Notes: generated from the sequence alone by a model not told the origin. A DNA stretch of 64,000 nt from an uncultured Bdellovibrionales bacterium (GCA_964505555.1 CAZDIO010000102.1:13355-77354), one strand, 5' to 3'; shown: positions 8,595-63,459, numbered from the stretch's first letter. A program made the numbers and translations.

Positions 8595-8673
8595 TACCTA
8601 AAACATCTCCTTGCTTTCATAAGAAAATCCATGTTTATTATATACTTCTGGAAAAATCTATAATTGCCATTAC

Positions 8674-16825: not shown

Positions 16826-17014
16826 GAATTGTAAAGCCTCAGCTTTTTAAGTAGGAGCAGAACTCATATCACACGTCATTTGGCAGTGTCTATTATAGCT
16901 AGCAGGCGGACAGACCGTGGTTGTATTTTGGCACGCAAGAAGGTATTGAGAACGGTGTTATTTTTGTAGGTACATCAAATAATAACTAGCTCTTAAAGTG
17001 AAGGAAAATAGATC

Positions 17015-18156: not shown

Positions 18157-18801
18157 TCACTTTCGTCCGAGGTGTATCGGACCTGAAGGTGAGGGAGAAA
18201 GAAGCACACAGCTTGTTTGATCAAGTGCATATTTAAGATCGCATCGGGGACAACTTACTTCGATCTTCACTGAAAAATCCTTCATCGCTCCAAGTTTTTC
18301 ACCGCATTCGCATATCCATCCAACCTGCTTTGCTGGAACACCAAGCATAAAAGCATAGTCGGGAACGTTTTTTGTTATAACTGCGCCAGCGGCAACAAAA
18401 GCGTGTTTCCCAATGGTGCGGCCACATACGACAGTGGCATTAGCACCGATCGAAGCACCTTCCCTAACGAGAGTCTTTTTATAAAATTCAGCTCCTCGTT
18501 GGGGATACTTAGAGCGGGGATCTAAAACGTTGGTAAACACCATCGAGGGGCCACAGAAGACAAAATCTTCAAGTTCAACCCCTTCGTACACAGAAACGTT
18601 GTTTTGAATTTTTACATAATTTCCAATTTTTACACCCTCTCCCACAACAACATTTTGCCCAAGAGAGCAATGAGCACCGATACTTGCATTTTTTTGCAGA
18701 TGACTAAAATACCAGATCTTTGTCCCCTCTCCAATGGTAACATCTTCATCGATAATGCTTGAGGAATGAACAAAATATGATTTCTTCTCTGCCACGTTCA
18801 T
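18157..18801 (-). CDS. Hexapeptide-repeat (left-handed beta-helix) sugar N-acetyltransferase (WbpD/PglD-like) with a C-terminal Cys4 zinc-ribbon-like tail
   Basis: Repeated [LIV]G-x4 hexapeptides (IGEGTKIWYFSHL..IGAHCSLGQNVVVGEGVKIGNYVKIQNNVSV). The C-terminus is CECGEKL...CPRCDL. Confidence 0.8.
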   Translation of the reverse strand: MNVAEKKSYFVHSSSIIDEDVTIGEGTKIWYFSHLQKNASIGAHCSLGQNVVVGEGVKIGNYVKIQNNVSVYEGVELEDFVFCGPSMVFTNVLDPRSKYPQRGAEFYKKTLVREGASIGANATVVCGRTIGKHAFVAAGAVITKNVPDYAFMLGVPAKQVGWICECGEKLGAMKDFSVKIEVSCPRCDLKYALDQTSCVLLSPSPSGPIHLGRK

Positions 18802-18825
18802 AACTATTCTCTCTGCTCTCTGAGT

Positions 18826-19965
18826 TTACTGATAGAAACTTTGTAACGTTTCAACTACATATTGTTGCATCTCGGTAGTAAGCTCCGGATATATCGGCAA
18901 GGCAAGTGAGTGCGCCGCTGCAAACTCGCTCTGTGGAAAATCTCCCTTTTTATAGCCGAGTGAGGAAAAACACTCTTGAAGGTGAAATGGGACTGGATAA
19001 TAAATCTCAGTTCCAACGTTATGGGCAGTAAGAAACGCCCGTAACTCGTCTCGTTTTTCACCTACAGAGATAACGTATTGGTTATAGATATGGTACTCAC
19101 GTTGATAGGCGATGGGCGGTTTCTTGATCTGTTCAACCTGAATATGTTGGTCATAAAAGGCGGCATTATTTTGCCTCATTTCATGCCACCTACTGAGGTG
19201 CCCAAACTTTACTAACAAGACCGCTGCCTGCAGGGTATCAAGACGAAAATTTCCGCCAATGAGCGAATGATAATATTTTGGGTTTGCACCATGGTTACGA
19301 AGAGAAGTAATTTTTTCTGCAAAAGCTTTATCATTTGTTACCACCATCCCACCATCACCCATCGCACCTAAGTTTTTACTAGGAAAAAACGATAGGCATC
19401 CCGCAAGGCCGATGCTCCCCGCTTTTTTCACTCCGTGTTTTGATGGATAACGTGCTCCAATTGCCTGTGCAGAATCTTCAATAATAGGAATACCGTAAAG
19501 TTCCCCTACCTCCTTTATTGGATCCATATCCGCACACTGTCCATAAAGATGAACAGGAATAATTGCTTTGATCTTACCTTTTTTGTCTGAGTGCTCGAGA
19601 AACGTTGCTAATGCTCTCGGGCAAATATTATAGGTCAGCGGATCAATATCGACAAAAAGAGGTGTGGCACGAAGCCTTGCAACAACACCTGCGGTCGCAA
19701 AAAAAGAATACGGTGAGGTAATAACGAACTCTCCGGGTTCGAGATCAAGTGCCATCAGCGAAACCAACAAGGCATCAGTCCCCGAAGAAACCGCTATTCC
19801 AAACTGTGAATCACAGTAGGTAGAGATAGTTCTTTCGAGCTTTCCTATCTCTGGTCCCATTATATAGGCAGTAGAATTGATTACTGCCTCGATCGCCGGG
19901 TTTAGTTCAGGACGAATGGACTCAAGTTGAGCTTGGAGATCAAGAAGTGGTACCTTCAATGGCAT
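18826..19965 (-). CDS. DegT/DnrJ-family PLP-dependent sugar aminotransferase (third copy)
   Basis: SSGTDALLVSLMALDLEPGEFVITSPYSFFATAGVV and SFFPSKNLGAMGDGG. Confidence 0.85.
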   Translation of the reverse strand: MPLKVPLLDLQAQLESIRPELNPAIEAVINSTAYIMGPEIGKLERTISTYCDSQFGIAVSSGTDALLVSLMALDLEPGEFVITSPYSFFATAGVVARLRATPLFVDIDPLTYNICPRALATFLEHSDKKGKIKAIIPVHLYGQCADMDPIKEVGELYGIPIIEDSAQAIGARYPSKHGVKKAGSIGLAGCLSFFPSKNLGAMGDGGMVVTNDKAFAEKITSLRNHGANPKYYHSLIGGNFRLDTLQAAVLLVKFGHLSRWHEMRQNNAAFYDQHIQVEQIKKPPIAYQREYHIYNQYVISVGEKRDELRAFLTAHNVGTEIYYPVPFHLQECFSSLGYKKGDFPQSEFAAAHSLALPIYPELTTEMQQYVVETLQSFYQ

Positions 19966-29185: not shown

Positions 29186-29232
29186 AACCATCCTACGGCC
29201 ATTAAATTAAGGATCTGAAAGAAAGATCTATA

Positions 29233-29305
29233 GAACCACAGAGACACAGAGCCGCAGAGAAGATTAATAAAATCCCTTTCCTCTGTGTCTCTGCGCCTCT
29301 GTGGT
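29233..29305. repeat. Palindromic repeat, family B copy 1 (core aaccacagagacacagagccgcagagaag ... cctctgtgtctctgcgcctctgtggtt). Conserved flanks extend the unit to about 29215-29335.
   Basis: Read directly. A second copy with the same arms and flanks is at 63098-63189. Confidence 0.8.
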
Positions 29306-29353
29306 TTAATAAAGAATCTTTAACTTAATGGCCGTGAGAATCCTCCTAACGTT

Positions 29354-30395: not shown

Positions 30396-31259
30396 CTACT
30401 GCAGCAACGTCAACGCCAAGGCTGGCTGTTGATTTGCTTGTGCTAATACTGAAGCACTTGCTTGCTGGAGAATATTTAGTCGCGTAAGTTCCGCCGCTTC
30501 GAACGCTACGTCAACGTCACGGATTCGACTTTCTGCAGCGAGGAAGTTTTCTCGAGCCACTTGCAAGTTACTAATCGCCACATTCAGCCGACTCTCGGTA
30601 GAACCCAATGTTCCTCGAGACGCTGTCAAACTTCCGATGGCGAGGTTAATAGCATCAAGAGCTGATCGTGCAGAGATCTGAGATTCATTCGCCGTTGCCG
30701 CCAAGATCGAAAACAACGGTATAGAACTCCCCTCAACTGCCAACCCAATTGATGCCAAGGTAGCAGAAACTGCAGAGTAGGATACCTGTGAGGTAGTCTG
30801 CCCATCAAACCCTACCTGAAACACCGTCTGTGCTCCTCCAGAGAGAAGGTTTACACCGTTAAATTCAGTTGTTAAGGCGATTCGCTCAATTTCGCTTGAG
30901 AGCGCGAGAAACTCTAAATGCAACGCAGAACGTTGGGTGTTACTAAATACACCGTTGGCTGATTGTTCAGCAAGCTCTGCAAGCCTTGTTAATACGTTTC
31001 CGATCTGCTCCATCGCACCGTCAGTAATGGAGATCATCGAAACACCATCGCTTGCGTTTCGTATGGCGACAGTAGCTACTCGAGAATCTGAACGCAGCTG
31101 ATCGGCGATCGCAAGTCCAGCAGCATCGTCTGATGCTTTGGTAATTCGCAAACCGGACGACAACCGCTCATAGGCTTTCTGTAAACGATCCGTTGTTGAA
31201 CTTAAGTTTCTCTGCGCAGTAAGCGAGGAAACGTTAGTCCGTATATTAATTGTACCCAT
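30396..31259 (-). CDS. fliC: Flagellin
   Basis: 287 aa. The N-terminal D0/D1 region (INIRTNVSSLTAQRNLSSTTDRLQKAYERLSSGLRITKASDDAAGLAIADQL) and the C-terminal helix (ESRIRDVDVAFEAAELTRLNILQQASASVLAQANQQP) are the canonical flagellin termini. Confidence 0.9.
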   Translation of the reverse strand: MGTINIRTNVSSLTAQRNLSSTTDRLQKAYERLSSGLRITKASDDAAGLAIADQLRSDSRVATVAIRNASDGVSMISITDGAMEQIGNVLTRLAELAEQSANGVFSNTQRSALHLEFLALSSEIERIALTTEFNGVNLLSGGAQTVFQVGFDGQTTSQVSYSAVSATLASIGLAVEGSSIPLFSILAATANESQISARSALDAINLAIGSLTASRGTLGSTESRLNVAISNLQVARENFLAAESRIRDVDVAFEAAELTRLNILQQASASVLAQANQQPALALTLLQ

Positions 31260-31485
31260 TTCTTACCCTCCTTGACACCCTTACACCTCCTCCGAGACCT
31301 CTACTACAACCGATACTGCTCCTAGGAACTCGATCCGTATCCAGCACGGAGATAGGTTTCAGCACTTTTGTGCATGTTAACCAATAAAACGCTCAAGATA
31401 TGTATCGCTAAACTGCTCTGACCAAACAGCTACTACCGTAAGACTACTCCTAGCACTTCTCGTGCCAGGTTTTGTGATCAGCGTC

Positions 31486-32490
31486 TTAGGCGATATTTTG
31501 AAATGGAGTTTCCCGTTTGAGTGCGGCTCGAAGTTCTGCAACACGCGTCACATAAGCCCGAGTACTCGCGGGTAAGTGCGGTTCGATGCTTTCAAAGTTT
31601 GTCGGATCTTTTCCTAAACGAAGTGCCTTCGCTTGTGCTTTTGCAACATTTCCTTCACCTGCGTTAAAGGCAGCGATGGCAAGTTTTTCCAAATCGTCGG
31701 CACTTTTAGCCGGCACGGTTTTTAATCCCGGTCTTAAAAATGTTTCTCGACTAAAAATGTCGTGGAGTTTTCGTAAATACCCCACTCCTAAGTGTGCATT
31801 GAGTCGGGGATCAAAGGGATCATAACCTGCAGGCATTTTGTAACGAACAAGCATCTCACTTGCGGTTTGATCCAGAAGCTGAAATAGCCCCTTTGTTTCA
31901 TGACCATCTTTACTCACCACATGTGGCCTCAGTGATGACTCTGCTTTCGCAACCGCAATACTTAGCTCAGGATCTACACCATGGTACTTCCCTGCTGTCT
32001 TAATAATCTCCTTTATATCCTGACGAGAGTAATCGCTATAAGGCTTAATACTTGCTCGATCTGGGTACACCCTCTTAGCGCTTACAAAAAGTGGGGTGAT
32101 CGGCTTTTCTACTTTTTCTACCGCTGATATTTTTTTGACACTCTCGCTCACCGGATTGACACGGAGCGAGGCATGAATAACCCCACTACTTCCACTTCCA
32201 GAAACTGCAGTAGCGTTCTTTATTAAGGGAGGAAGGTCTGCTTCAAGCATACCGTGCTCTTTGGTGTTAAGATTAGAAACTATCTCACCTGAAGGATTTA
32301 TGGAGGGTGTAGCTTGCTTTAAGTCTTCAGAAGGAGTTGATTTTGCAGCACGCTTTTCAATATCTGAAAGGAGCTCAGAGAAATCCTTCTGATTTGAGCC
32401 ATGGGTGGCCGTATCATTACCGGAGCGACCCCTTGGGGAGTCGATCCTGTTTTGATTTTTCTCGTAGCCTACATTAAATATCGTTGTCAT
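31486..32490 (-). CDS. Lytic transglycosylase (SLT domain) with an N-terminal low-complexity region
   Basis: SLT family-1 motifs AESSLRPHVVSKDGHETKGLFQLL and AFNAGEGNV in the C-terminal half. Adjacent to the flagellin gene. Confidence 0.6.
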   Translation of the reverse strand: MTTIFNVGYEKNQNRIDSPRGRSGNDTATHGSNQKDFSELLSDIEKRAAKSTPSEDLKQATPSINPSGEIVSNLNTKEHGMLEADLPPLIKNATAVSGSGSSGVIHASLRVNPVSESVKKISAVEKVEKPITPLFVSAKRVYPDRASIKPYSDYSRQDIKEIIKTAGKYHGVDPELSIAVAKAESSLRPHVVSKDGHETKGLFQLLDQTASEMLVRYKMPAGYDPFDPRLNAHLGVGYLRKLHDIFSRETFLRPGLKTVPAKSADDLEKLAIAAFNAGEGNVAKAQAKALRLGKDPTNFESIEPHLPASTRAYVTRVAELRAALKRETPFQNIA

Positions 32491-33063: not shown

Positions 33064-33126
33064 TTGAACACAGAGTTTCACAGGGTTACACAGAGTAAAG
33101 ATTTTAAAATTCAACTCTGTGTTCAA
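33064..33126. repeat. Family A palindromic repeat, copy 1 (right arm truncated)
   Basis: ttgaacacagagtttcacagggttacacagagt + loop aaagattttaaaattca + actctgtgttcaa. It sits between convergent genes. Confidence 0.85.
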
Positions 33127-36657: not shown

Positions 36658-38235
36658 CTAAACGCTACGATTCCTTTCTCGTTTTCTTTTCCAAGTTTCA
36701 AAGTCTACTACCGCAATTTTTTTTGCAAGCTCCTCACGAACACATCCTTCAACCGCTTCATGAAGACTTCTTCGATCAAGAGCGGTTTTTAAGCAGTTCA
36801 TCTTCTTTTCAACCTGATCATAGAGGTTTGAAAGAGACTCAGAAGAGAGTGTTTTTCGATAGCGATCGACTTCGGTAGAGAGGTATTCCTGATACTCTTT
36901 TTTCTCAACTGGATTGGCCTCTCCCCGCCCGCTAGAGATTGGGGCTTTTGGAAAGTCCCGCCCAGTATTTTTAAGGATTTTCTCTTCAAAACTCCGGGGA
37001 ATAATGAATTTATGTGGAGTTTCTACTGCCCGATAGAGAAAACCTACCCGATTTTTTGAGACTTTCGTATCATTTGTTTGCACAAGAAAATCGTAATAGG
37101 AGATGATTTTATCAACTTGTAAAAGTTCTGCGGCGTTTTTTTCACTGAGCAGCCGTTTTGCTTGCGAGAGATGAATGCCTCGCGAAAGCAGAGCTTCAAT
37201 GGCTCCTTGTCGTTGTGATTCTAGATCAGTAGAACTGCGTTGGGAGGAATCTTTTTGAAAAACAGGGGGCGAAGAAAGGATAAAGCTTCCTTGCTGCGTG
37301 TGATTTCTAGGAAGAGGGCTCTCTGTTTGCTGGAGATGTTTTTGAGATACGATCTCTTTTCCGGAATGAAAGCGCACAACGGTCTCTACGCCCCTACCTG
37401 CAAACTCATAACTTGAGAGAAACCCAAGCGCTTTTAACTCCTCGCACGCTGGTTCAATTTGTTGCTTAATCTGGGAGATGTATTGATAACTTCGAGAAAG
37501 TCCTAACTTCTCAAAGGCAAAGGTAACAAGTGGTTTTTCAATACTTGATTTGTAGTAAAAATGCTTATCAAGATACCGGTAGAGCCTTCGACTTACAGCA
37601 CTTCGAAGTGAGAAATAAAGGGTTAAATCAAGCTTTTTTATAAACCCTGATTTAAAAGAATGAAAAAGTGCCTCACTCCAAATAAAATAACTCTTTGAAG
37701 CCTCAGCCCCAGAGAGGGCTTTGTTCCCTCGCCCATCGTTTATTTCGTAGGCATCGATAATTCCGAAATTTCTTGTTTGATAGGCTTTTGAAGCATTATC
37801 AAAAAACGCATTTGCTGCCCGAATTCGAACCCCGCTTAAGCGATCAAGTGATTTTGTAAGGCGGGAGTAGCTTCGCCCTTCTGTGGTCCAGCGTAAGATT
37901 CCTAAAAGCTCATACCGGGTAAAATATACCTTTCGGTTTCGAAACCCTTGATCCATCGTTAACCGCATCAAGCCAAGAAGGACATCATCATCCGTAGCGG
38001 TGGGGAGTCCAAACTTGTCTGCCCCGGTAATAATCCACTGGCGTTCAATCACCTCCCCACTGGGGAGCCGTTGGTTGTCACGAAACTCAAGGGTTTTTAC
38101 CTTTGAGTTTGTGCGTGTCGAGAGAACCGCGAGGGGAAACTCTGCAAGGTTCATCTCATCACGTGAGGTAAGCACTACCTCGGATGAGGAGACTTCACGA
38201 TCTTCGGCTCTTTGTTGGTAGAGGGTTTGCTGCAT
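36658..38235 (-). CDS. Replication initiator protein A (RepA/RPA-family)-like protein
   Basis: The N-terminal region NLAEFPLAVLSTRTNSKVKTLEFRDNQRLPSGEVIERQWIITGADKFGLPTATDDDVLLGLMRLT resembles plasmid RepA-family initiators. It faces a 900-bp non-coding region followed by parAB. Confidence 0.5.
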   Translation of the reverse strand: MQQTLYQQRAEDREVSSSEVVLTSRDEMNLAEFPLAVLSTRTNSKVKTLEFRDNQRLPSGEVIERQWIITGADKFGLPTATDDDVLLGLMRLTMDQGFRNRKVYFTRYELLGILRWTTEGRSYSRLTKSLDRLSGVRIRAANAFFDNASKAYQTRNFGIIDAYEINDGRGNKALSGAEASKSYFIWSEALFHSFKSGFIKKLDLTLYFSLRSAVSRRLYRYLDKHFYYKSSIEKPLVTFAFEKLGLSRSYQYISQIKQQIEPACEELKALGFLSSYEFAGRGVETVVRFHSGKEIVSQKHLQQTESPLPRNHTQQGSFILSSPPVFQKDSSQRSSTDLESQRQGAIEALLSRGIHLSQAKRLLSEKNAAELLQVDKIISYYDFLVQTNDTKVSKNRVGFLYRAVETPHKFIIPRSFEEKILKNTGRDFPKAPISSGRGEANPVEKKEYQEYLSTEVDRYRKTLSSESLSNLYDQVEKKMNCLKTALDRRSLHEAVEGCVREELAKKIAVVDFETWKRKRERNRSV

Positions 38236-39130
38236 GAAAAAAAATGAAACAAAAAAATTTTAAATTAACTTCAAGTCGTTTGTTATTTTGGTACAACGTA
38301 CATCATAGTTCTTCAACAAGAAGTTTTTTTATAAGTACGTACGTTAGGAGAGAAATTATTCAATCTTTCTAGTAAGTTAAGCCAGAAAATTTCTTTCGAT
38401 TCCCGAATCTTTTGGGCTCAGATCACGATGGACTTGAAGTCAATTCACTTGAGCACTTATCTCATTTCATGAGATTTTTATTCTCCTGCCTAACTTTCTT
38501 ACTTCGACTCTCGACATTGTGAAACCAAAAGCGCGAGATTTTTATGTAAGGCTCTCTGGAGCCTCTAACATGAGTCAGATAGCCAAACATTCCGGAGAAA
38601 ACGGTAGGTGGTCACGGTCATTAAGTTAGTTCCTGTCCATAAAAGCCAATTTTGAGTCCAAGGTCGATTGAACGGCCACTACTTCTAAACTTACTCTGTG
38701 GTTTTATAAAATCTTCTTTCAGACCCTTAATGACCGTGGGTAAGAAACTCTATTTTAGTAAAGTCTCTTAGTTCATTACTCGAACCCTTATTTCAATACA
38801 CGCCTATTTGACCATTTTTGGTTATTCCATTTCACGAACAGCAGCCAAACAAAAACCACAAGATATTCTAACATATTGAAATTATTAATATAATCAGATA
38901 TTCGTGGTTTAATTGACCTCCAAAGATCGCATTATTCTGGGAATGTTCGAGCTTCGAAATAAGTACTGATCACGTTTATAAGCGAGCTTTTGAAAGATGA
39001 TTATTTCAAAGCACGCTACTTTTTGGCCACTAGGTAGGTTTCTTTACTGTTTGGAAGCTTTAGTTTAAACCAGTTATTGTTTAATTTAACCTCTGCCAAA
39101 ATCTCAACTCTTGAGTAACGAAGCTGTAAG
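38236..39130. promoter_or_regulatory. About 900-bp AT-rich non-coding region between the RepA-like gene and parA. Candidate replication origin / partition site region.
   Basis: No ORF of 60 aa or more on either strand. Contains the inverted repeat ggtcacggtcattaag (38611-38626) / cttaatgaccgtgggtaag (38726-38744) and several A/T tracts. Confidence 0.4.
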
Positions 39131-39913
39131 GTGGCCATGGCAAAAGTCTTTGCAATAGTGAATCAAAAGGGGGGAGTTGGAAAAACTACCACCGCTGCAA
39201 ATTTGGCCGCCGCGCTATCTGAGCGAGGTCAAAAAGTGCTTGTTATTGATCTTGATGCTCAAGCAAATCTCTCTGCTCATTTTGGAAGTTCCGTAGATGA
39301 TCAGAGTGAGCAGCTTACAATGTATGATGTGCTCAGGCACAACGCCCCGATTGAAAAAGCAATAATAAACCTCTCTTCGAACTTAAGTATCGTTCCTGCA
39401 AGCCTCCTACTAAGTGCTGCAGATTTAGAGCTTGGTGGTGTTATCGGTCGTGAGTTACTTCTTAAAAAAGCTCTTCAACCGGTAATTGATGACTATGATT
39501 ACACGATCATTGATTGCCCACCCTCACTGGGGATGCTCTCCCTCAATGGGCTTGTTGCTGCTTCACGAGTTATCGTTCCTGTTCAAAGTGAGTTTTTAGC
39601 CCTTCACGGCGTAAGGCAGCTTCTTGATACGATTGACCAGGTACGAAGTGCCTACAACCCCTTACTTGCTGTGGGTGGAGTTCTTCTCTGTCTTCATGAT
39701 TCAAGAAGGAGACTGGCGCGGAGTGTTGCCGATACGGTGCGCGAATATTTTGGAGATCTTGTTTTTGAAACTGTCATTCGCACAAACGTTGCCCTTGCTG
39801 AAGCACCTGCCCAGGGGGACTCAATTTTTCAATACGACCGCCGCTCAAGCGGTGCTGAAGATTATGCTAGCCTTGCAGAGGAGATACTAAGCCGTGGCAA
39901 AAAAGAAGGTTAA
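39131..39913 (+). CDS. parA: ParA/Soj-family partition ATPase
   Basis: Deviant Walker A KVFAIVNQKGGVGKTTTAANLAAAL. 260 aa. Confidence 0.9.
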   Translation: MAMAKVFAIVNQKGGVGKTTTAANLAAALSERGQKVLVIDLDAQANLSAHFGSSVDDQSEQLTMYDVLRHNAPIEKAIINLSSNLSIVPASLLLSAADLELGGVIGRELLLKKALQPVIDDYDYTIIDCPPSLGMLSLNGLVAASRVIVPVQSEFLALHGVRQLLDTIDQVRSAYNPLLAVGGVLLCLHDSRRRLARSVADTVREYFGDLVFETVIRTNVALAEAPAQGDSIFQYDRRSSGAEDYASLAEEILSRGKKEG

Positions 39914-40814
39914 ATTCAGTGTAAACCCACTTCTTGGGGGACCAAGTCTTGCATCACGAGCAAAGATGGGGAGCCCTTATCGGGAGCTTTTAATCGACGA
40001 GATCGATTTTGATCCTGATCAACCGCGACGAGTATTTAATGAAGAGCGACTTCAAGAGCTCGCTGATTCAATTAAAGAACACGGAATCATCTCACCAATA
40101 CTTGTTAAAGTAACAGAAGGGGGAACCTATAAGCTTGTATCTGGAGAGAGAAGACTTCGTGCCTCAAAAATTGCTGGATTAGAATCGATCCCCGCAGTTA
40201 TTGAAGACGATGATAAAAGTAGTGATGTAACCCTTCCTAAGCAGCTTGTAGAAAATCTCCAACGAGAAGATCTCACCGTAATGGAGAGGGCGATCGCTAT
40301 TGGCCAACTACGAGATGCTTACAAATTGAGCATTCGTGAGATCTCCTCAAAGCTTTCCATTTCAAAAGGACTCGTTCAGAGAAGCCTTGAAGTTCTCGAT
40401 CTCCCAGACGATCTTCAAGCAGCGTTAATAAACGGTGCCTCAGAGACGAAGATTCTCGTTTTAGCGAAAGTTTCGAATCGTGAATTGAGAAAAGAATTTA
40501 TCGCTCAACTTGATAATTTCACCCGAGCACAACTTGAAGAAGAGGTAGATCGGGTTACGACACTCTTAAATGGCGACAAAGAAGAGGTGTACCACGGTGG
40601 TACACCTCGTAGTCGAAAAAATGGAAGAAATAAACTTTCCCCTCAAGATGAGCAGTTAATTAATGATTTAAAAAACAAACTAGGAACAAGAGTTTCTTTA
40701 ATGCGCAGTCGTGGCAAAGAGGGGCAGGGGAAGCTGATGATCGAGTTCTATTCAGATAACGATCTAAGCGAGATCTTTCGACGACTTTGTCGAACCGCTA
40801 GCGATTCTCTTTAA
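39894..40814 (+). CDS. parB: ParB/Spo0J-family partition protein
   Basis: ParB N-terminal box ISPILVKVTEGGTYKLVSGERRLRASKIAGLESIPAVI and a central HTH. It overlaps the parA stop. Confidence 0.85.
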   Translation: MAKKKVKFSVNPLLGGPSLASRAKMGSPYRELLIDEIDFDPDQPRRVFNEERLQELADSIKEHGIISPILVKVTEGGTYKLVSGERRLRASKIAGLESIPAVIEDDDKSSDVTLPKQLVENLQREDLTVMERAIAIGQLRDAYKLSIREISSKLSISKGLVQRSLEVLDLPDDLQAALINGASETKILVLAKVSNRELRKEFIAQLDNFTRAQLEEEVDRVTTLLNGDKEEVYHGGTPRSRKNGRNKLSPQDEQLINDLKNKLGTRVSLMRSRGKEGQGKLMIEFYSDNDLSEIFRRLCRTASDSL

Positions 40815-41734: not shown

Positions 41735-42571
41735 ATGAATCCTCCCTTTAGAAGATATCGATTTCTAAACACCCGCCCCAAACACCAGGCAGCATCTCTT
41801 TCAGAAATAGTTGTTAAAAACGGTGGAGAAGTAGTGGAGCTTCCCACACTTGAGATCTGTGCAGTTGAAGCTTCTCTCCAGAGAGATTTTGCAGAGGCGT
41901 TGCGCTCACTTCGAACAGGAGATTGGGTGTTTTTTACAAGTGCAAACGGAGTGAGAGAGGTTTGTAATTACCTGGAGAAGGAAAATCAGGAGGCACTAAA
42001 GGTGCTTTCTCAAGTAGGGATAGCCGTAGTGGGGGAGGTAACGAAAGAGGCTCTCTTTGAATTTGGAATTAAGGCCAGTTTCTGTGGGAAAACCGCTACT
42101 TCAAAATCACTTGGAGAGGAGTTTTTAGCGCAGCTTGGACAGAAGAGAAGGGGACAAAAAGCCCTTCTTTTTCAAGCAAAAAACGCCTCAGCAGAGCTTT
42201 CTGCGCTTTTGGAGGAGGGAGGATTTGAGGTGATAAACAGCGTGGTTTATTACTCAATCTGTCCTGAGGTTAGTAATGACCTGAGGGAGCAAGTGTATCG
42301 TTTAGTAAGAGAGAAGGCGCTTGATGGGATATTTTCTACAAGTAGTGAAGCGCTTCGAAATCTTAGTACTTTTTTTGAAGGTCATCTCCTTGAAGTGATA
42401 AGGAACACCCCTCTCTTTGTTATCGGCTCACAAACCGAAGCGACAGCGATGAAGCTTGGATTTAAGGAGATCTATCAGTCCCCTCATCCAAAGGTGAACT
42501 CTCTTGTAGAGACAGCTTTTCATTACTTTTCTACACAAAATCAATTACTGGAAGGAGGAGGACGAGTATGA
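41735..42571 (+). CDS. hemD: Uroporphyrinogen-III synthase
   Basis: 278 aa. N-terminus FLNTRPKHQAASLSEIVVKNGGEVVELPTLEI. HemD-like two-domain organisation directly upstream of hemB. Confidence 0.65.
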   Translation: MNPPFRRYRFLNTRPKHQAASLSEIVVKNGGEVVELPTLEICAVEASLQRDFAEALRSLRTGDWVFFTSANGVREVCNYLEKENQEALKVLSQVGIAVVGEVTKEALFEFGIKASFCGKTATSKSLGEEFLAQLGQKRRGQKALLFQAKNASAELSALLEEGGFEVINSVVYYSICPEVSNDLREQVYRLVREKALDGIFSTSSEALRNLSTFFEGHLLEVIRNTPLFVIGSQTEATAMKLGFKEIYQSPHPKVNSLVETAFHYFSTQNQLLEGGGRV

Positions 42572-43539
42572 GTTTTCCTAACACTCGGATGCGAAGACTA
42601 CGACAGAATATCGCTCTTCGTGCCCTTACGGAAGAAACGAAACTTTCAAGTAAGGATTTTATCGCTCCCCTTTTTATTGTTCCAGGAAGGGGAGTAAAAA
42701 AAGAGATCTCCTCGCTTGAGGGGCAGTTTCATCTAAGTGCTGATGCGGCTGTTGAAGAGGTGTATACGCTTAGGAAACTCGGGGTTAAATCGGTATTACT
42801 CTTTGGACTTCCTGAAAAAAAAGATGAGCGAGGGGAGGTAAGTTGTCTTCCCGATGGAGTAGTACAGCAAGCAATTAGTGCGATAAAGAAGGAAGTTCGT
42901 GAGGTGGCCATTATCGCTGACCTCTGTTTTTGTGAATACACAACCCATGGTCATTGCGGAATTATTGTTGATGGGGATGTGGATAATGATCTGACCTTGG
43001 AGATGACCGGAAAGCAGGCGATCTCCCTTGCTCGCGCTGGAGCGGACATTATCGCTCCATCGGGGATGATGGATGGGATGGTGCAAACGATCCGTTTAGC
43101 ACTGGATAAAGAACAATTTATAAACACGGCCATTATGAGCTACTCCGCTAAGTACTGCTCCTCTTTTTATGGGCCATTTCGAGAAGCGGTAGCCTCTTCC
43201 CCCTCTTTTGGGGACAGAAAAACGTATCAGATGAATCCTGCAAATAGCGAGGAAGCACTACGAGAAGTAGCTCTCGATCTGGAAGAGGGTGCTGATATTG
43301 TAATGGTAAAGCCAGCCCTCTCGTATCTGGATATTATTTCCCGAGTAAAAGAGAGATTTCATGTACCACTTGCTGCATACAACGTCAGTGGTGAGTATGC
43401 GATGGTGAAAGCCGCCGCAGAGAAAGGTCTTATTGATGGCGAAAAGGTAATGATCGAAACCCTCCTCTCTATAAAACGCGCCGGTGCAGATACGATCATC
43501 ACCTACTTTGCAAAGGAAGCAGCAACTTTTTTATCTTAG
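42568..43539 (+). CDS. hemB: Porphobilinogen synthase (delta-aminolevulinate dehydratase)
   Basis: Active-site region with metal-binding cysteines DLCFCEYTTHGHCG, VKPALSYLDII and AYNVSGEYAMVK. Confidence 0.9.
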   Translation: MSFPNTRMRRLRQNIALRALTEETKLSSKDFIAPLFIVPGRGVKKEISSLEGQFHLSADAAVEEVYTLRKLGVKSVLLFGLPEKKDERGEVSCLPDGVVQQAISAIKKEVREVAIIADLCFCEYTTHGHCGIIVDGDVDNDLTLEMTGKQAISLARAGADIIAPSGMMDGMVQTIRLALDKEQFINTAIMSYSAKYCSSFYGPFREAVASSPSFGDRKTYQMNPANSEEALREVALDLEEGADIVMVKPALSYLDIISRVKERFHVPLAAYNVSGEYAMVKAAAEKGLIDGEKVMIETLLSIKRAGADTIITYFAKEAATFLS

Positions 43540-43541
43540 AG

Positions 43542-43718
43542 GCTGTATCAAAACCTCAAGAAACCTTAGACTTAGGGTCTTTAAGCCTTCGACTTAAACT
43601 ACACTTAGCCTTGCTCCTGCACTTGCTAAGTGTAGTTTAAGGAGAGGTCGAAGTGAAAGTCTAAGATAGTGTATAAAAACTTTCAGAGCCTTTGATTTAG
43701 AAGGTTTTGATACAGCGT
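43542..43718. repeat. Nested imperfect palindrome (about 180 nt) downstream of hemB
   Basis: Outer arms ggctgtatcaaaacct / aggttttgatacagc. Middle arms cttagactt / aagtctaag. Inner 17-bp perfect arms cttaaactacacttagc / gctaagtgtagtttaag. Confidence 0.6.
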
Positions 43719-43781
43719 CCAAGTAAACACCTGTTTCTCTCTAGGGCGGGTTGGCTAAAGTACGTCGGGCTGTTTTTTTAA

Positions 43782-43869
43782 TGAACACAGAGTTTCACAG
43801 AGATCCACAGAGTAAAGAAAAAAGCTTTTAGATTTAACTCTGTGTAACCCTGTGAAACTCTGTGTTCAA
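43782..43869. repeat. Family A palindromic repeat, copy 2 (left arm degenerate)
   Basis: tgaacacagagtttcacagagatccacagagt ... aactctgtgtaaccctgtgaaactctgtgttcaa. Confidence 0.85.
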
Positions 43870-44020
43870 ACCTACTAAATGAAACGACGCTAGTTGAAAC
43901 CACCTCTATTTGACCCATATAAACCCTAGGGAACTTAAGCTTTAAATCATCGATAAAGATTATGAGGGCAATTCGTCTCTCATCACTATTACGAAATAGA
44001 CTTCAAATAGGGAGGCCATC

Positions 44021-45376
44021 ATGATCGTTACTGATTCACCATTTCGCACGCAATATAGCGCCAATAACGTTGCAATTCGAAACGGAGCAACAAGTACTAC
44101 GCCGGCGCAATTTAGTAATCTTTCTTTTCTTCGATCGACACCACCTTCTTTACCTTCAAGCAATCTCCTTGCCCCATCAAGTAGCGGAGGATTTGTTTCT
44201 CAAGTGCAGTCGATGCTGCAGCAAGTTTCGGTGCTGATGGATCTCATCGGTGCCGCAAGACAATCAGATCAAAGTGCTGGGGTTAGTCTCCTCGATGGGG
44301 CGAAACTCTTTTCTCAAAATGTTTCTCAGGAGCTTTTTAACCTTCAGACAAGAGGAGGTATCGGAGGGGTTTTTGATGCTGTTCCGACCTCTATAGATAG
44401 TCTTGGTACTGCCGCTCAACAGTACGTTCTTGGGAACCTCAAGCGAGAGTTTTTTGACGCAGTTGGTGAGGCGTTTGGGGTGGATGTTTCACAGCTTTCT
44501 GTAACAGATCTTGCCAATTTGGCTTATGAAAGCGTTTTTGGAGAGGGAACATCGCTCTCTAGTACCCTCTCAGATGGGGTGGCAGGAATCTTCTCCGGTC
44601 AGGATCCCTTTGTAGCAGGAGAACTTAGTGGAGAAATTGGTGGAGAAATAAGCACTGAAGTAGGCGGGGCAACTTCAGGAATTGGCCAATTTACAGGCGC
44701 TTTAGCAACCGCGTATTCTCTCTATGGAATAATTAATGACTGGGGAAAGAGCACCCCAGCCATGGGTGCGATGCGAGGTGCTACGGCTGGAGCGTACATC
44801 GGGAGTATTATTCCAGGAGTTGGAACTCTTATCGGAGGTGCCATCGGTGGGGTTGCGGGGGCGATCTCTGGATTGTTTCATAGTGGGAAGCATAAAAACC
44901 AGATTCAACGCGATCAGGTTCGAGAGTTTTTAAGAAATGCCCAAATTATCGATTCAGATAACTCCCTTCAGTTAGCAAATGGTGAACGTTTTGATATCGG
45001 AAAAGATGGAGGTGCTCGCTATCTTGGACTTGACGGAGTTGAGAGACGACCCTACGTGACTGACCCTTCAAATCCACTTACCGCTGAGGCGATAGGGCTT
45101 GTAAATCCGTTAGCAATAATTCTCACCGGAGGTGATCCTGGACTTTCTTCAGCTTTTGCAGGGTATTTTAGTAATGCCATCGTCAGTAACGCACAAGATC
45201 TCGAAGGCGTCCGCCAAAATGCCTTGGCGATATTCTCAAAATTTCAGGTTACCCCAGAGCAATTGATCGCTGGCTTAGAAAATCTTACTGCCTCCGGCAA
45301 AATCCCCCCAGAAGATTTTGCTGCATACGCAAACGGGGTAAGAACTCTCCTTGAAGGGTTTTCTTCACCTTCATAA
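44021..45376 (+). CDS. Hypothetical Gly/Ser-rich protein with a central glycine-zipper hydrophobic segment
   Basis: 451 aa. The central segment GATAGAYIGSIIPGVGTLIGGAIGGVAGAISGLF has a GxxxG-zipper pattern. Flanked by family A repeats on both sides. Confidence 0.3.
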   Translation: MIVTDSPFRTQYSANNVAIRNGATSTTPAQFSNLSFLRSTPPSLPSSNLLAPSSSGGFVSQVQSMLQQVSVLMDLIGAARQSDQSAGVSLLDGAKLFSQNVSQELFNLQTRGGIGGVFDAVPTSIDSLGTAAQQYVLGNLKREFFDAVGEAFGVDVSQLSVTDLANLAYESVFGEGTSLSSTLSDGVAGIFSGQDPFVAGELSGEIGGEISTEVGGATSGIGQFTGALATAYSLYGIINDWGKSTPAMGAMRGATAGAYIGSIIPGVGTLIGGAIGGVAGAISGLFHSGKHKNQIQRDQVREFLRNAQIIDSDNSLQLANGERFDIGKDGGARYLGLDGVERRPYVTDPSNPLTAEAIGLVNPLAIILTGGDPGLSSAFAGYFSNAIVSNAQDLEGVRQNALAIFSKFQVTPEQLIAGLENLTASGKIPPEDFAAYANGVRTLLEGFSSPS

Positions 45377-45390
45377 GAAGCGTTAGATTA

Positions 45391-45479
45391 TTGAACACAG
45401 AGTTTCACAGGGTTACACAGAGTTTGAACTATCTTACTTATCCCACACTCTGTGTAACCCTGTGAAACTCTGTGTTCAA
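45391..45479. repeat. Family A palindromic repeat, copy 3 (full length)
   Basis: ttgaacacagagtttcacagggttacacagagt ... cactctgtgtaaccctgtgaaactctgtgttcaa. Its right end overlaps the higB start. Confidence 0.9.
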
Positions 45480-45708
45480 CCTTCCTTTTTTGCTCAAAAA
45501 GTTTAAAAACATCTTTACTGCTATATCGAATAGTGATATTAATCTAGTGGTGATTCGATCGTACAAAAACATTGGCACACGTGATATTGCTGAGAATTCG
45601 AAAGCAGCGCGGCGACTGTTGCCGCAACCATTTAATGCTCAGTATCGCATTTGCTTTCTTTGGAATGGCATTGATGCTGACGCAGTTGAAATAGTGGATT
45701 ATCACTGA
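45472..45708 (+). CDS. higB: HigB-like (RelE/ParE superfamily) toxin. The start is uncertain and may lie a few codons downstream at a TTG.
   Basis: The C-terminus NAQYRICFLWNGIDADAVEIVDYH matches the HigB (plasmid maintenance system killer) signature. Confidence 0.6.
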   Translation: MFNLPFLLKKFKNIFTAISNSDINLVVIRSYKNIGTRDIAENSKAARRLLPQPFNAQYRICFLWNGIDADAVEIVDYH

Positions 45709-45732
45709 GAGATTACAAAAAAGGGCTTCAGC

Positions 45733-46026
45733 ATGTTGAAACCTAGGCGTGTTATAGCAGTGCATCCTGGAGAGATGCTTGAAGAGGTTCTTAAACAGAA
45801 CAAGATTAGCCAATCTTCCCTTGCCGCTCATCTCGGAGTTACTCAAGCAAAGATCAACGAAATCTGTCGTGGTAAGCGAGGAGTGACGCCAGATATGGCG
45901 ATGAAGTTCGGTAAAGCTTTTGGACAGAGCCCAATGTTTTGGATAAATATCCAAAAAAATTGGGAGATGAGCCAGCTCGATGAATCTGATTACAAAGACA
46001 TACAACGGATAAAATGTCGTGCGTAG
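45733..46026 (+). CDS. higA: HigA-like XRE-family HTH antitoxin
   Basis: IAVHPGEMLEEVLKQNKISQSSLAAHLGVTQAKINEICRGKRGVTPDMAMKFGKAFGQSPMFWINIQ, the canonical HigA antidote pattern. Confidence 0.75.
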   Translation: MLKPRRVIAVHPGEMLEEVLKQNKISQSSLAAHLGVTQAKINEICRGKRGVTPDMAMKFGKAFGQSPMFWINIQKNWEMSQLDESDYKDIQRIKCRA

Positions 46027-46142
46027 AAAGCAAGTAAAAGGATTTTACTGGACTTCTGCTGATGCACGGCGACTGCATTTGCTCTCTATTTGAATCCCGA
46101 CTGAGGATCTGGAGAGTTTTATTAAATTACAGCTTATGATTA

Positions 46143-46232
46143 TTGAACACAGAGTTTCACAGGGTTACACAGAGTGTGGGAATAATTAAGATAATTTAAA
46201 CTCTGTGTAACCCTGTGAAACTCTGTGTTCAA
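46143..46232. repeat. Family A palindromic repeat, copy 4 (full length)
   Basis: Same arms as copy 3. It shares the extended flanks gattattgaacac and caaccttccctttttgc with copy 3. Confidence 0.9.
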
Positions 46233-46482
46233 CCTTCCCTTTTTGCCTGTGGGCATGTGGAGTTACCGATTGCTCTAAGAAAAATCATTGATGAAGGCCA
46301 ATTAAGCTGAGGCAAATTGCCTCAGTAGATTCAAAATGCATCAGCGATCATTATTCTAACCCTCTGAAACTGTTCAGATCTTCTTTCACACCAAAGTTGG
46401 CATGACCTTGCAATAGAAACGGTAGGTTCTTGCTACAGGTTCTTTTTGTTTTTTAGTCAGAAAACTTAGCAAGGAGGACTTT

Positions 46483-47196
46483 GTGGTGAAAGGGACAACG
46501 GAAAAATTAACTGAAGAGCAGATTCCCCTCGTAATTGAAAATATTCTTTATGCAAAAAAACTGGCGAGGCAGTTTTATCAACAACGAAGCCACTTCGGTT
46601 TCGATGTTGAGGATTTTGAAGGCGCAGCATTGTTTGGATTATGTGACGCTGCAAGGAGGTTTGAGCCTGATAAGACACTTCATTTTAGAACATTTTCCTA
46701 TTTTCGCATTCGGGGTGCGATGTATGATCTGCTGCGACATGGGGGGGGAATTTCGAAGAAACACTTCAAGTGTTTCATTGAAAATCGAAATCAAACGGGA
46801 GAGGGGACAAAACCTCGAGCAGAGGAAGAAGGGAGCCTCCCCTATTCATTTGCAAGAACTGCTGAGGAGTTATCGAGCATTATTGCCACGATTGAAGAGA
46901 TCGATATCGCTGTGCATGTCAGCACGGACAGCGAGATTCCTGAACTCAGCTACGCACGAGACCTAAATCCTGAAGAGATCAATACCATTCGTGCAACCCG
47001 GTCCTATATTAGAAAACTTATCTCTCAACTTCCCACTGAACAACGAACCGTAATTGAACTTCGCTACTACAATGGCGCTACCTTTGATGAAATTAGCGCA
47101 AATCTCGGTGGGCACTCACGGAGTTGGGTTTCACGAACCCATGTTCGAGCTCTTGATAATTTGCGAGGGATGATTCTTAGCGAAAGGAGAGTGTAA
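46483..47196 (+). CDS. fliA: Sigma-28-type (FliA/WhiG family) RNA polymerase sigma factor
   Basis: Region 2 (FDVEDFEGAALFGLCDAARRFEPDKTLHFRTFSYFRIRGAMYDLLR) and region 4 HTH (TVIELRYYNGATFDEISANLGGHSRSWVSRTHVRALDNLR). 237 aa. Confidence 0.8.
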   Translation: MVKGTTEKLTEEQIPLVIENILYAKKLARQFYQQRSHFGFDVEDFEGAALFGLCDAARRFEPDKTLHFRTFSYFRIRGAMYDLLRHGGGISKKHFKCFIENRNQTGEGTKPRAEEEGSLPYSFARTAEELSSIIATIEEIDIAVHVSTDSEIPELSYARDLNPEEINTIRATRSYIRKLISQLPTEQRTVIELRYYNGATFDEISANLGGHSRSWVSRTHVRALDNLRGMILSERRV

Positions 47197-48131
47197 TGAC
47201 ATCCTCAAAATGGAAAGGAATTTTTCTTGCGCTCGTAGCGTTTTTTCAGGTCAGTTGTAAAGAGACCGTTCTTCATAACTTAGATGAGGTGCGAGCCAAT
47301 CAGGTAAAAGTAACACTAGAGAAACGAGGAATTACTGCGCAAAAGCTTTTTGAAGGGAGCGGATGGAGTATTCGAGTCAAGCGTGCTGACGAAACAGAGG
47401 CACTCTCGATTCTTGAAGAAAGCAGAGTTCTCAAACGGAATCTCCGAACCCCGATAGAACCACCAAAGGGGCTTATTCCAAGCCGAGAGGAACGAGCATC
47501 ATTTTCAGAACGGCAACTGGCGGCAAGTTTAGAAAGTACTCTTGAGCGCTTACCCTATGTGCTAGAAGCTCGAGTTCATCTGAACTTAAATGCCGAAGAG
47601 AACCTTCAAATGGTTTTGCCAAAAGAGGGCCATACGGGAAGTGCTCTGATTGTCACCGATGATCATATGCCTGATCATTTAGCAATTCAAAAATCTCAAG
47701 TACAACAACTCATTGCAGGAGCATCAGGAGTAAACCCACAATCAATCTCGGTAGTAATCGCCAAAGCAAGTGCTGAAAACTACGCAGAGCCACAGATCCA
47801 TAAAGTAGCAAAGCCAGTAGAGACGACGAAAAAAGATACTCCCTCCCATTCTCCATCGTGGATAAAAAAGCTGATAGTGCATGCTCGACAGTATCAAACA
47901 TTTTTAATCTATCTCGCTGGGGTATTAATTGCAGTTCTTGCACTCCGATTGATTTTTCGAAAAAACCCATTTCGAAGTGAGCAAACAATACCGAGTTTTC
48001 AAATGCCTCCTCTGAAGAACTCAAAAAATACCGTCTCCTCTGGTGTTCTGGTCAACGGTACCCAACACGGAAATGGCAGTCAGTTTAAACTGCAACCAAA
48101 CAAACAACATGAAACATTGGAGGTGTACTAA
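47196..48131 (+). CDS. sctJ: SctJ (YscJ/PrgK/EscJ/CdsJ-family) type III secretion inner-membrane ring lipoprotein
   Basis: Lipobox FFQVSC, SctJ-conserved blocks (ARVHLNLNAEEN; VQQLIAGASGVNPQSISVVI) and a C-terminal TM. 311 aa, which is injectisome-size, not FliF-size. Its ATG overlaps the fliA stop. Confidence 0.8.
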   Translation: MTSSKWKGIFLALVAFFQVSCKETVLHNLDEVRANQVKVTLEKRGITAQKLFEGSGWSIRVKRADETEALSILEESRVLKRNLRTPIEPPKGLIPSREERASFSERQLAASLESTLERLPYVLEARVHLNLNAEENLQMVLPKEGHTGSALIVTDDHMPDHLAIQKSQVQQLIAGASGVNPQSISVVIAKASAENYAEPQIHKVAKPVETTKKDTPSHSPSWIKKLIVHARQYQTFLIYLAGVLIAVLALRLIFRKNPFRSEQTIPSFQMPPLKNSKNTVSSGVLVNGTQHGNGSQFKLQPNKQHETLEVY

Positions 48132-63070: not shown

Positions 63071-63097
63071 TTAGGGTTCTGGAAGAAAGATTATAAA

Positions 63098-63189
63098 ACC
63101 ACAGAGACACAGAGTCGCAGAGAAGATCAACAAAATCCTTTTCTCCGTATTCTATCTCTGTGTCTCTGTGTCTCTGCGTCTCTGTGGTT
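63098..63189. repeat. Family B palindromic repeat, copy 2. Conserved flanks extend the unit to about 63085-63225.
   Basis: aaccacagagacacagagtcgcagagaag ... tctctgtgtctctgtgtctctgcgtctctgtggtt. Flank similarity to copy 1 (gaaagat.tata...ataaa.aatctttaa.tta.tggc.gt). Confidence 0.8.
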
Positions 63190-63459
63190 TTATTAAAAAT
63201 CTTTAATTTATGGCTGTAAAAGCGAGAGGACTTCTATATCTAAATTGTTTACACACTAATCAAGTCGACAATCCTTCTGCAATTGTCTATCCAAAAACCG
63301 TATTTCGACACTATTTCTTATCGTCATGCATCAAAAAAGAATGATCAAAAGCCATAGTTTTGCCTGAATTTTTAGGGAGTTGTGAGTTGTTTTGTAGGTG
63401 ACTGTAATCCGGGCGATCCAGAAGGGCGATAATAATTTTTCAGAAACGGAAATTCCACC

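Follow-up and report, generated by a model that had tools for sequence, protein, structure and literature searches.

We analysed a 64,000-nucleotide stretch of DNA from an uncultured Bdellovibrionales bacterium (GCA_964505555.1 CAZDIO010000102.1:13355-77354), hereafter the window, with the focus on a 2.45-kb segment at 43782-46232 between hemB and an operon for a type III secretion system (T3SS). The segment holds an open reading frame (ORF) for a protein of 451 residues, ORF451, a damaged higBA toxin-antitoxin (TA) pair and three copies of a hairpin repeat, family A. A first-pass annotation had proposed that this is a horizontally acquired effector or translocator cassette, bracketed by the repeats and stabilised by higBA. 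Our analysis suggests instead that the segment is probably a variable gene junction, in which repeats, a broken TA pair and a member of a wider protein family are found together, rather than a discrete mobile cassette. The features of the locus are the following.

42568-43539, hemB.
43535-43723, nested palindrome of ~190 nt, single-copy, with its onset in the hemB stop codon; not of family A.
43782-43869, family A copy A2 (subfamily 1), left arm with 3 substitutions; 243 nt past the hemB stop and 152 nt ahead of the ORF451 start.
44021-45376, + strand, ORF451 (451 residues), from the ORF scan.
44756-44884, + strand, glycine-zipper hydrophobic hairpin of ORF451 (residues ~246-288).
44888-45355, + strand, conserved C-terminal domain of ORF451 (residues ~290-445).
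45379-45493, repeat unit of family A copy A3 (subfamily 2), with its palindrome at 45391-45479; begins 15 nt past the ORF451 stop.
45550-45708, + strand, HigB remnant (52 residues), with an in-frame internal deletion.
45733-46026, + strand, HigA antitoxin or helix-turn-helix regulator (97 residues), intact; TIGR02607 and PF01381.
46131-46246, repeat unit of family A copy A4 (subfamily 2), with its palindrome at 46143-46232; sister of A3.
46483-47196, + strand, gene for a FliA/WhiG-like sigma factor, head of the sigma-sctJ-...-sctV-TPR operon, which runs to 53146.

As an inventory the first-pass annotation was accurate except for HigB: the Gly/Ser-rich ORF with its one central GxxxG hydrophobic segment, the three family A repeats around ORF451 and higBA, and the T3SS operon directly downstream, in which the FliA-like sigma factor, SctJ, SctV and a TPR protein were identified, are all present. 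ORF451 has a GGGAGG Shine-Dalgarno sequence 6 nt 5' of its ATG. A regional promoter scan found no sigma70-type promoter upstream of ORF451, and a scan for the sigma28 promoter TAAA-N14-16-CGAWA gave none upstream of either ORF451 or the flagellin gene of the window. The nested palindrome at the end of hemB, with outer arms of 22 nt and perfect inner arms of 17 nt, folds with -78.8 kcal/mol (z -7.7); each arm occurs nowhere else in the window and no Rfam family matches it.

The composition of the segment does not deviate from that of its flanks, in GC content, in codon usage or in tetranucleotides. Its GC content is 0.440, compared with 0.433 for the whole window, and the codon-usage likelihoods, with the 51 other genes of the window as reference, give z values of -0.13 for ORF451 and +1.02 for higA. 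By tetranucleotide distance the segment ranks 58th of 124 among all 2.45-kb windows, i.e. at the median. No integrase, transposase or other recombinase was found in any window ORF scanned, and there is no tRNA gene in the window.

No close relative of the source genome is present in the collections. When 185,579 GTDB species genomes were scanned with the sigma factor, a single match was obtained, a Bdellovibrionales metagenome-assembled genome (MAG) with 42% identity and a related sigma28-T3SS operon; the named matches of HemB are from Polyangia or 'Deltaproteobacteria'. A chlamydial origin, suggested by the GC content and the sigma28+T3SS arrangement, was rejected in view of these matches and of a named ORF451 homologue from Bdellovibrionota. 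The junction splits two blocks of genes that are kept in relatives, flagellin-SLT-RepA-parAB-ispA-hemD-hemB on the left and sigma28-sctJ...sctV-TPR-GT2 on the right. At L138, from the closest relative found, with a HemB of 72% identity, flagellin-SLT-RepA(RPA)-parA-parB-ispA-hemD-hemB follow one another in the window order and unrelated genes come after hemB. The sigma28-sctJ-...-sctV-TPR operon is kept at L006, L014 and L015, each with different genes upstream of sigma28, and at L014 the GT2 and an Rce1-like gene are kept too. A homologue of ORF451 is absent 3' of hemB in L138 and absent upstream of the sigma28 operon in the other three. The hemB|sigma28 junction itself is found in none of these nearest relatives, which keep one block or the other. 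In the comparison that the first-pass annotation had called for, the segment is missing at the matching sites in all four loci, but these relatives are just 42-73% identical in marker proteins and are too distant (sigma28 <=51%, HemB <=73%) to separate an insertion from ordinary rearrangement. Of the idea of a horizontally acquired cassette there remains that the segment is accessory and variable, absent at this locus in relatives, while its native composition, the dispersed repeats described below and the lack of mobility genes speak against it. Junctions around the conserved blocks in this group collect TA modules and repeats, and three unrelated items would have gathered at the present one: repeat copies, a decayed higBA and an ORF451 of native composition.

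The proposed higBA pair proved to be half genuine. HigA scores 82.8 bits on TIGR02607 against a cut-off of 47.7, with a further 36 bits on PF01381, and the order of toxin before antitoxin with close spacing (the HigB remnant ends at 45708, higA begins at 45733) is as in such modules. The 'HigB' ORF, on the other hand, had no Pfam or NCBIfam match, even at E=10. When plasmids were searched by tblastn, only its last 24-26 residues matched RelE/ParE-family toxins encoded upstream of HigA genes, with 62-67% identity. In an alignment with three intact HigB sequences, from Shinella, Sulfurimonas and the Bdellovibrionales MAG L006 (the last with 60 bits on PF05015), both ends are seen to be kept, the N-terminus VIRSYKN..., in which 7/7 residues are identical to Shinella HigB, and the C-terminus YRICFLWN..VEIVDYH. 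Between them 43 central alignment columns are missing, in frame, and the conserved PPGNRLE..L.GDR.GQ.SIRIN core is gone. What is left is a remnant of 52 residues, not the full-length RelE-fold HigB (PF05015, ~92 residues). Its native start is the GTG at 45550, and the listed ORF of 78 residues (45472-45708), which opens within repeat A3, is an ORF-calling artefact.

The locus resembles the type II HigBA modules of the Rts1 or Vibrio cholerae type (PF05015 + TIGR02607) in having the toxin gene first, a 97-residue helix-turn-helix HigA above cut-off and recognisable HigB termini; it differs from them in the loss of the 43 core columns and of any match to a HigB model, and is therefore an orphan antitoxin locus and not a working pair. 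As the HigB lacks a working toxin core, higBA is unable to enforce retention by post-segregational killing, and the suggested stabilisation of the segment by this pair has to be given up. Most likely HigA is retained as a repressor or anti-toxin without a partner.

The repeats had been taken as the borders of an island. Their 33-nt arm, TTGAACACAGAGTTTCACAGGGTTACACAGAGT, has 9 matches in the 64-kb window against 0 expected, and these define six elements. In addition to A2, A3 and A4 they include the following, which are listed with the elements of a related family, B.

33064-33126, family A copy A1, right arm shortened; 33 nt past the stop of an OsmC-like gene.
53184-53272, family A copy A5; 38 nt past the stop of the TPR gene.
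54378-54459, family A copy A6, left arm one decamer shorter; 41 nt past the stop of the GT2 gene, between convergent genes.
29229-29327 and 63092-63210, family B elements (related family, 8-nt phase).

Elements of family A measure ~90-115 nt. Three CACAGRG heptads, set in a 10-nt phase, make up each 33-nt arm. The full-length copies have a loop of 17-24 nt and arms that are 97-100% complementary; A3, A4 and A5 form a perfect 33-bp stem (-59 to -61 kcal/mol, z -11.5 to -14.7) and A2 a 33-bp stem with mismatches (-42 kcal/mol, z -8.7). All six A copies and both B copies are intergenic and lie in 3' gene flanks, and six of the eight begin 15-44 nt after a stop codon, those of ORF451, the OsmC-like, TPR, GT2 and UbiD genes and one unnamed ORF. 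A dispersed family that is also found 3' of OsmC, TPR and glycosyltransferase genes does not mark the borders of an island. The positions probably reflect either insertion at terminator-like sites or a role of the repeats as terminators or mRNA-stabilising hairpins. The hairpins were not flagged in a consensus promoter/terminator scan, the size limits of which are exceeded by their stems and loops. At L014, vapBC (16253-16944) follows the TPR gene and parDE (18489-19067) follows the GT2 gene, exactly at the A-repeat junctions of the window.

Within the segment A3 and A4 are closest to each other. Their arms are identical and their outer flanks 92-98% identical, while the loop is unlike that of A1, A2, A5 and A6. 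The common flanks are GATTA on the left and CCTTCCYTTTTTGC on the right, the latter given for A3 as CCTTCCTTTTTTGC. The two copies are direct 115-nt units 752 nt apart, with arms and outer flanks in direct orientation, but the loop of A3 (45424-45446) is the reverse complement of the loop of A4 (46176-46199), so that the loops are flip-flopped across the perfect 33-bp stem. This pattern favours recombination or duplication at the repeat, followed by inversion of the loop across the perfect stem. Because the 0.75-kb piece with the HigB remnant and higA (higB'A) is bounded by these sister copies with flipped loops, recombination at the repeat is the probable source of its insertion or duplication. 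ORF451, unlike higB'A, is bounded by copies from two different subfamilies, A2 and A3. A contig from an independent short-read data set, L013 (Logan SRR13076517), corresponds to window 46212-47618 with 100% identity and breaks inside A4 at 46212, as expected of a multi-copy element in a short-read assembly.

Family A behaves like a lineage-specific repeat of the miniature inverted-repeat transposable element (MITE) or repetitive extragenic palindrome (REP) type. With Correia, RUP, ERIC, REPIN and Rickettsia palindromic elements it shares a size of ~90-115 nt, a non-coding, multi-copy and intergenic nature, long inverted arms that give very stable hairpins, the presence of subfamilies and an expansion in one lineage only. 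It differs in that no target-site duplication is visible, there being no common direct duplication flanking the six A copies, and in that no partner transposase or RAYT is encoded in the window. In contrast to REPINs, the arms of family A are not themselves palindromic, and the stems are perfect 33-mers built of 10-nt-phased CACAGRG heptads. None of the related loci compared has family A or B repeats, the exact arm (as a 27-mer query) gave zero matches in the metagenome and viral collections, and Rfam has no fitting family, with only sub-threshold generic miRNA-hairpin matches.

The positions of the repeats would also suit an integron-type array with attC-like sites and a TA cassette, as in Vibrio superintegrons: a palindromic repeat stands 3' of each unit, the termini ...TTGAAC / GTTCAA... 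fit RYYYAAC / GTTRRRY at 6/7 positions, and the higBA-sized unit is 752 nt long. The window encodes no IntI or other tyrosine recombinase, however, and the 33-bp stems are paired throughout, with none of the extrahelical bases that attC requires. The 'cassettes' would, moreover, have to include the 7-kb T3SS operon and a 10.7-kb stretch with the replication origin and minus-strand genes. We therefore rejected the integron reading, for the lack of IntI and the perfect duplexes, and regard it as scarcely credible.

A degenerate form of the arm is widespread. The core AACACAGAG-N3-CACAGNG-N3-CACAGAG, with 22 fixed bases, occurs in >120 metagenome contigs among the matches listed (loci L016-L135), mostly as arrays of 3-6 [NNN]CACAGAG decamers. 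Of the 128 core matches listed, 19 have an inverted CTCTGTG array <=120 nt away. In these the heptads are conserved and the 3-nt spacers are complementary at 35% of positions only, which suggests that the arrays may be phased binding sites for a protein rather than the product of selection for pairing. Runs of a TAACTGA heptamer are seen in several of the core-bearing contigs. A search of the literature on the heptad motif turned up nothing relevant. As an island, then, the locus is ordinary, and is made up of dispersed hairpin repeats and a decaying TA pair at a variable junction.

ORF451 itself is the more unusual component. The protein is rich in Gly (13.1%), Ser (11.1%) and Ala (10.4%) and has no Cys at all. 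It comprises a polar disordered N-terminus, a helical part (~59-173), a Gly/Ser-rich linker, the glycine-zipper hairpin and the conserved C-terminal domain. The only hydrophobic stretch is at residues ~253-288, with stacked GxxxG motifs and a Kyte-Doolittle maximum of 1.61 at 260-285; ~245 residues precede the hydrophobic segment, and there is neither a signal peptide nor a lipobox. Of the first 40 residues 52% are S/T/P/N/Q, compared with 29 +/- 8% for the other genes of the window and a family mean of 44%. In line with the first-pass annotation, which had noted that ORF451 has no enzymatic motifs, no enzymatic or housekeeping domain was found in the search of hidden Markov model libraries. 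Pfam, NCBIfam and PADLOC scans gave nothing beyond glycine-zipper noise, namely sub-threshold matches to the models PF13488 (20.9 bits against 25), PF13441 and PF13436; such models are matched at E<=1e-4 by 20 of 105 relatives. The glycines of the zipper are conserved (G253, G257, G261, G268, G272, G276 and G280).

The C-terminal domain, which is the family's hallmark, carries the motifs GKHxDQxxRDxVR, DIGKDG, NPL and GYFxNAAxSNA. Within the family K290, R297 and D298 are invariant, and Q294, R301, D329, G330, R342, P352, P363, Y382, N385, S389 and N400 nearly so. In an AlphaFold2 model based on an alignment of 123 sequences, residues 290-445 form an alpha-helical bundle with a small beta element (pLDDT 91-98), and the N-terminal part is uncertain. 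Foldseek found no convincing neighbour of the fold, the best match having an E of 0.5 against the PDB and of 8e-3, with poor TM-scores, against BFVD, and the PDB sequence search returned only an OmpA-like glycine zipper.

A word-index search had given five homologues, as if ORF451 were an orphan, a view that was ruled out by an exhaustive profile search. With E limits of 1e-3, 1e-10 and 1e-30 the latter returned 2182, 976 and 334 cluster representatives, respectively. Family members have in common a polar N-terminus, free of Cys and signal-less, then the zipper hairpin and the C-domain of ~155 residues. About 60 representatives match ORF451 over its full length, the N-terminal region included, while the distant ones share just the zipper and the C-terminal ~160 residues. 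One named homologue is from Bdellovibrionota. Seven homologue neighbourhoods were all different and mostly of housekeeping genes (QueF/RluB, RtcB/AspS, a TamB-Omp85 fusion, GreA/FliS), and no T3SS genes or conserved partner were found in them. At L136 (4327-11566) the gene for a homologue of 521 residues overlaps by 14 nt the 3' end of the gene for a 1895-residue TamB-POTRA-Omp85 fusion, and an outer-membrane link is possible for part of the family. An N-terminal lytic transglycosylase domain (SLT, E 1e-30) is present in 3 of 105 members and starts at residue ~10, so that these proteins are signal-less.

The family is also found in phages. ORF451 residues 111-293 have weak PHROG matches to 'tail associated lysin' (E 8e-8) and 'tape measure' (E 2e-7), and a scan of IMG/VR yielded 15 viral contigs that encode proteins of 373-495 residues with the zipper and C-domain of ORF451. 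One viral member matches ORF451 with a BLASTP E of 5e-18, and hhalign against the viral profile gave 100% probability with an E of 1.2e-42. Thirteen of the 15 contigs, with capsid proteins of 65-100% mutual identity, have the family gene at the same position, in a row that consists of the major capsid protein (MCP), three small genes, g232, g287, the family gene, a gene for a 547-residue protein like p52 of Mx8 (g547), two genes and a gene for an 898-residue protein with a lytic transglycosylase end. A segment of g287 resembles a cyanopodovirus tailspike. By their capsid and p52-like proteins these contigs are linked to the Myxococcus phages Mx8 and Mx9, to Brucella podophages and to the Stenotrophomonas phage BUCT555. 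Among deposited phages and plasmids no family match was obtained by tblastn with ORF451 and two viral homologues.

That the family gene keeps one position within the tail block of Mx8-like podoviruses raises the question of whether a prophage has decayed here, of which ORF451, alone or together with higB'A, would be all that is left, as a gene that once encoded a virion or ejection protein. TA modules are common prophage cargo and the position is a synteny breakpoint, both of which would fit. Yet the 64 kb yielded no further phage gene, no integrase and no att-like tRNA, the codon usage of ORF451 is native, and most family members are lone genes with housekeeping neighbours, in contigs that reach 1.9 Mb. 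ORF451 is furthermore intact and full length, with an N-terminal region that is conserved over ~60 representatives, and a prophage origin of this kind appears improbable.

ORF451 could also be a resident glycine-zipper protein of the SlyB/Pcp type that serves the inner or outer membrane of its own cell and takes part in neither attack nor secretion. The zipper models that it matches are those of outer-membrane lipoproteins and OmpA-like proteins, one homologue overlaps the end of the TamB-Omp85 fusion gene, and the contexts are of housekeeping genes. Such a protein would, however, have to do without a signal peptide or lipobox and with ~245 residues ahead of its hydrophobic segment; the SLT-fused members are also signal-less, and there are homologues among phage tail genes. 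We consider this reading unlikely, if less so than that of a prophage remnant. With glycine-zipper proteins and toxins generally (SlyB/Pcp, CdzC/D, and Tse4/Ssp6 of type VI secretion systems) ORF451 shares a ~40-residue stacked GxxxG hairpin that is predicted to enter the membrane. These are small proteins or lipoproteins with a signal peptide, and they lack the 245-residue N-terminal region and the C-terminal domain of ORF451.

Parallels are also found in phage tape-measure, tail-associated lysin and internal virion (ejection) proteins (for example T7 gp16; PHROG 1047, 167 and 342), which likewise have Gly/Ala-rich zippers, are signal-less and in some cases are fused to lytic transglycosylases, and the viral homologues of ORF451 lie inside the tail-gene block. 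The differences are in size, 375-500 residues for the ORF451 family against 900-1500, in the lack of the C-domain from every deposited phage genome, and in most members being lone chromosomal genes. The Xanthomonas effectors of the type IV secretion system, X-Tfe with a C-terminal XVIPCD (PMC10933484), offer an analogy only: they also combine a variable N-module, which may be a signal-less peptidoglycan hydrolase, with a conserved C-domain. ORF451 has no sequence match to them, and neither an adjacent immunity gene nor a type IV secretion system is in view.

How ORF451 might work can be suggested from these features. The protein is signal-less and has a large domain on either side of its two-helix hairpin, and its topology would be simplest if it were exported whole by a non-Sec route. 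The glycine-zipper hairpin would then enter the membrane from outside, in the manner of phage tail-lysin, tape-measure and ejection proteins, and the C-domain may be a conserved working or targeting head. That ORF451 is an exported membrane-inserting protein is thus a tentative proposal, which we would place somewhat short of an even chance.

The first-pass annotation had likened ORF451 to T3SS translocators and pore-forming toxins and placed it on an acquired, repeat-bounded cassette held by higBA beside the T3SS operon. The gene is 1.1 kb upstream of the sigma28-headed operon and is missing from this locus in relatives. Like the translocators SctE/SctB (YopB/YopD, IpaB/IpaC, SseC, chlamydial CopB), ORF451 has ~450 residues, no Sec signal, a helical N-part with long helices and a central hydrophobic hairpin, and stands near T3SS genes. 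The absence of a signal peptide, the polar N-terminus and the hydrophobic hairpin do make a secreted membrane protein plausible, so that this much of the likeness can be kept. The translocator homology is lacking: ORF451 has no SseC-, IpaB- or YopB-type Pfam match at E<=0.1, and PDB sequence and fold searches revealed no T3SS translocator likeness. Unlike translocator genes, it is not next to a class II TPR chaperone gene, the TPR gene of the window (52529-53146) being ~7 kb away, past the T3SS operon. Nor is the linkage to the T3SS conserved, as the T3SS loci of relatives have no ORF451 homologue and the seven homologue contexts have no T3SS neighbours, and the family occurs in podovirus tail-gene modules. 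The native composition and codon usage, the inactivated HigB and the dispersed repeats count against the cassette as a whole, which we judge to be quite unlikely. The polar N-terminus and the lack of Cys would be compatible with export by a T3SS, equally with other routes, and, the adjoining T3SS being the sole link, delivery by this system is possible but improbable, with no finding that speaks for it. A literature search on glycine zippers, T3SS and Bdellovibrionota turned up nothing relevant.

Several points weigh against the picture of a variable junction with a membrane-inserting family protein. In the collections the best matches are of 51% identity for sigma28, 73% for HemB and 38-45% for ORF451, and, without a close relative, a recent insertion whose composition has already ameliorated is possible. 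L006 has an intact higBA (8038-8635) 1.3 kb upstream of its sigma28 operon, and the presence of higBA here could reflect a conserved association instead of chance. The copy number of family A is that of the 64 kb and not of the whole genome. For ORF451, the case for export and insertion is made from sequence features, domain fusions and gene position in phages; the PHROG matches are modest and fall within low-complexity Gly/Ala-rich sequence, the two helices of the zipper (246-261 and 268-283) are modelled with low confidence (pLDDT ~50), and the family gene of the phages could be a moron and not a virion component. We nevertheless favour the junction as the explanation of the locus as a whole.

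The operon downstream encodes a non-flagellar T3SS and opens with the gene for the FliA/WhiG-like sigma factor. With 83.8 bits on TIGR02479 this factor stays under the family cut-off of 189.6; it is followed by SctJ (PF01514), a small SpoA/SctQ-like protein, a needle-like protein of 100 residues, SctV (FHIPEP, 547 bits) and the TPR protein. The order sigma28-like, sctJ, two unknown, SpoA-like, needle-like, one unknown, sctV, TPR is kept in four lineages with 42-51% sigma identity. At 46397-46412, ~70 nt 5' of the sigma28 start, the sequence TTGGCATGACCTTGCA resembles a sigma54 -24/-12 element, with a GG-to-GC spacing one base under the canonical one, and at L015 a gene for a sigma54 activator is found a few kb from the T3SS operon. 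Flagellin and SLT genes are also present in the window (30396-32490), so that this organism encodes flagellar as well as non-flagellar T3SS components.

To the left of the segment a plasmid-type initiator, RPA (PF10134), on the minus strand, is followed by parA-parB (36658-40814, intergenic 38236-39130). The GC skew turns from negative on the left to positive on the right at 38-40 kb, between RPA and parA, where its cumulative curve is lowest; this indicates a replication origin there and places the segment 5-7 kb to the right of a RepA(RPA)/ParAB origin. About four weak iteron-like copies of TTATTTCAAWRCACG lie near RPA-parAB. Since the order RPA-parAB-ispA-hemD-hemB, with its flagellin/SLT flanks, is kept in L138, the region is a conserved RepA-type replicon, chromid or chromosome, with housekeeping and T3SS genes. 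The first part of the window (1-29000) is occupied by a polysaccharide or O-antigen-type cluster with DegT aminotransferases, GT1, GT2 and GT4 glycosyltransferases, Wzy-like and Wzx-like proteins, an epimerase, a split transketolase and a sulfatase.

Family A is a clean example of a heptad-phased hairpin, the core motif of which recurs in many unrelated metagenomic genomes. ORF451, for its part, gives entry to an unnamed family without a Pfam model, which runs to hundreds of clusters at 50% identity. The C-domain of the protein, which is without a solved structural neighbour, ties lone bacterial genes to a gene of the podovirus tail block and to lytic-transglycosylase fusions. In its boldest form, for which we see a small chance, the family would be a new class of signal-less glycine-zipper 'membrane-entry' proteins with a new-fold C-domain, shared by Mx8-like podoviruses, in their tail or ejection apparatus, and by Bdellovibrionota-like bacteria, in which it would have been domesticated as an exported envelope-breaching factor and possibly as a substrate of the adjacent T3SS. 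If ORF451 is indeed an exported membrane-inserting factor, this would be relevant to the breaching of cell envelopes by phages and perhaps by Bdellovibrionota-like bacteria that are predatory or host-associated.

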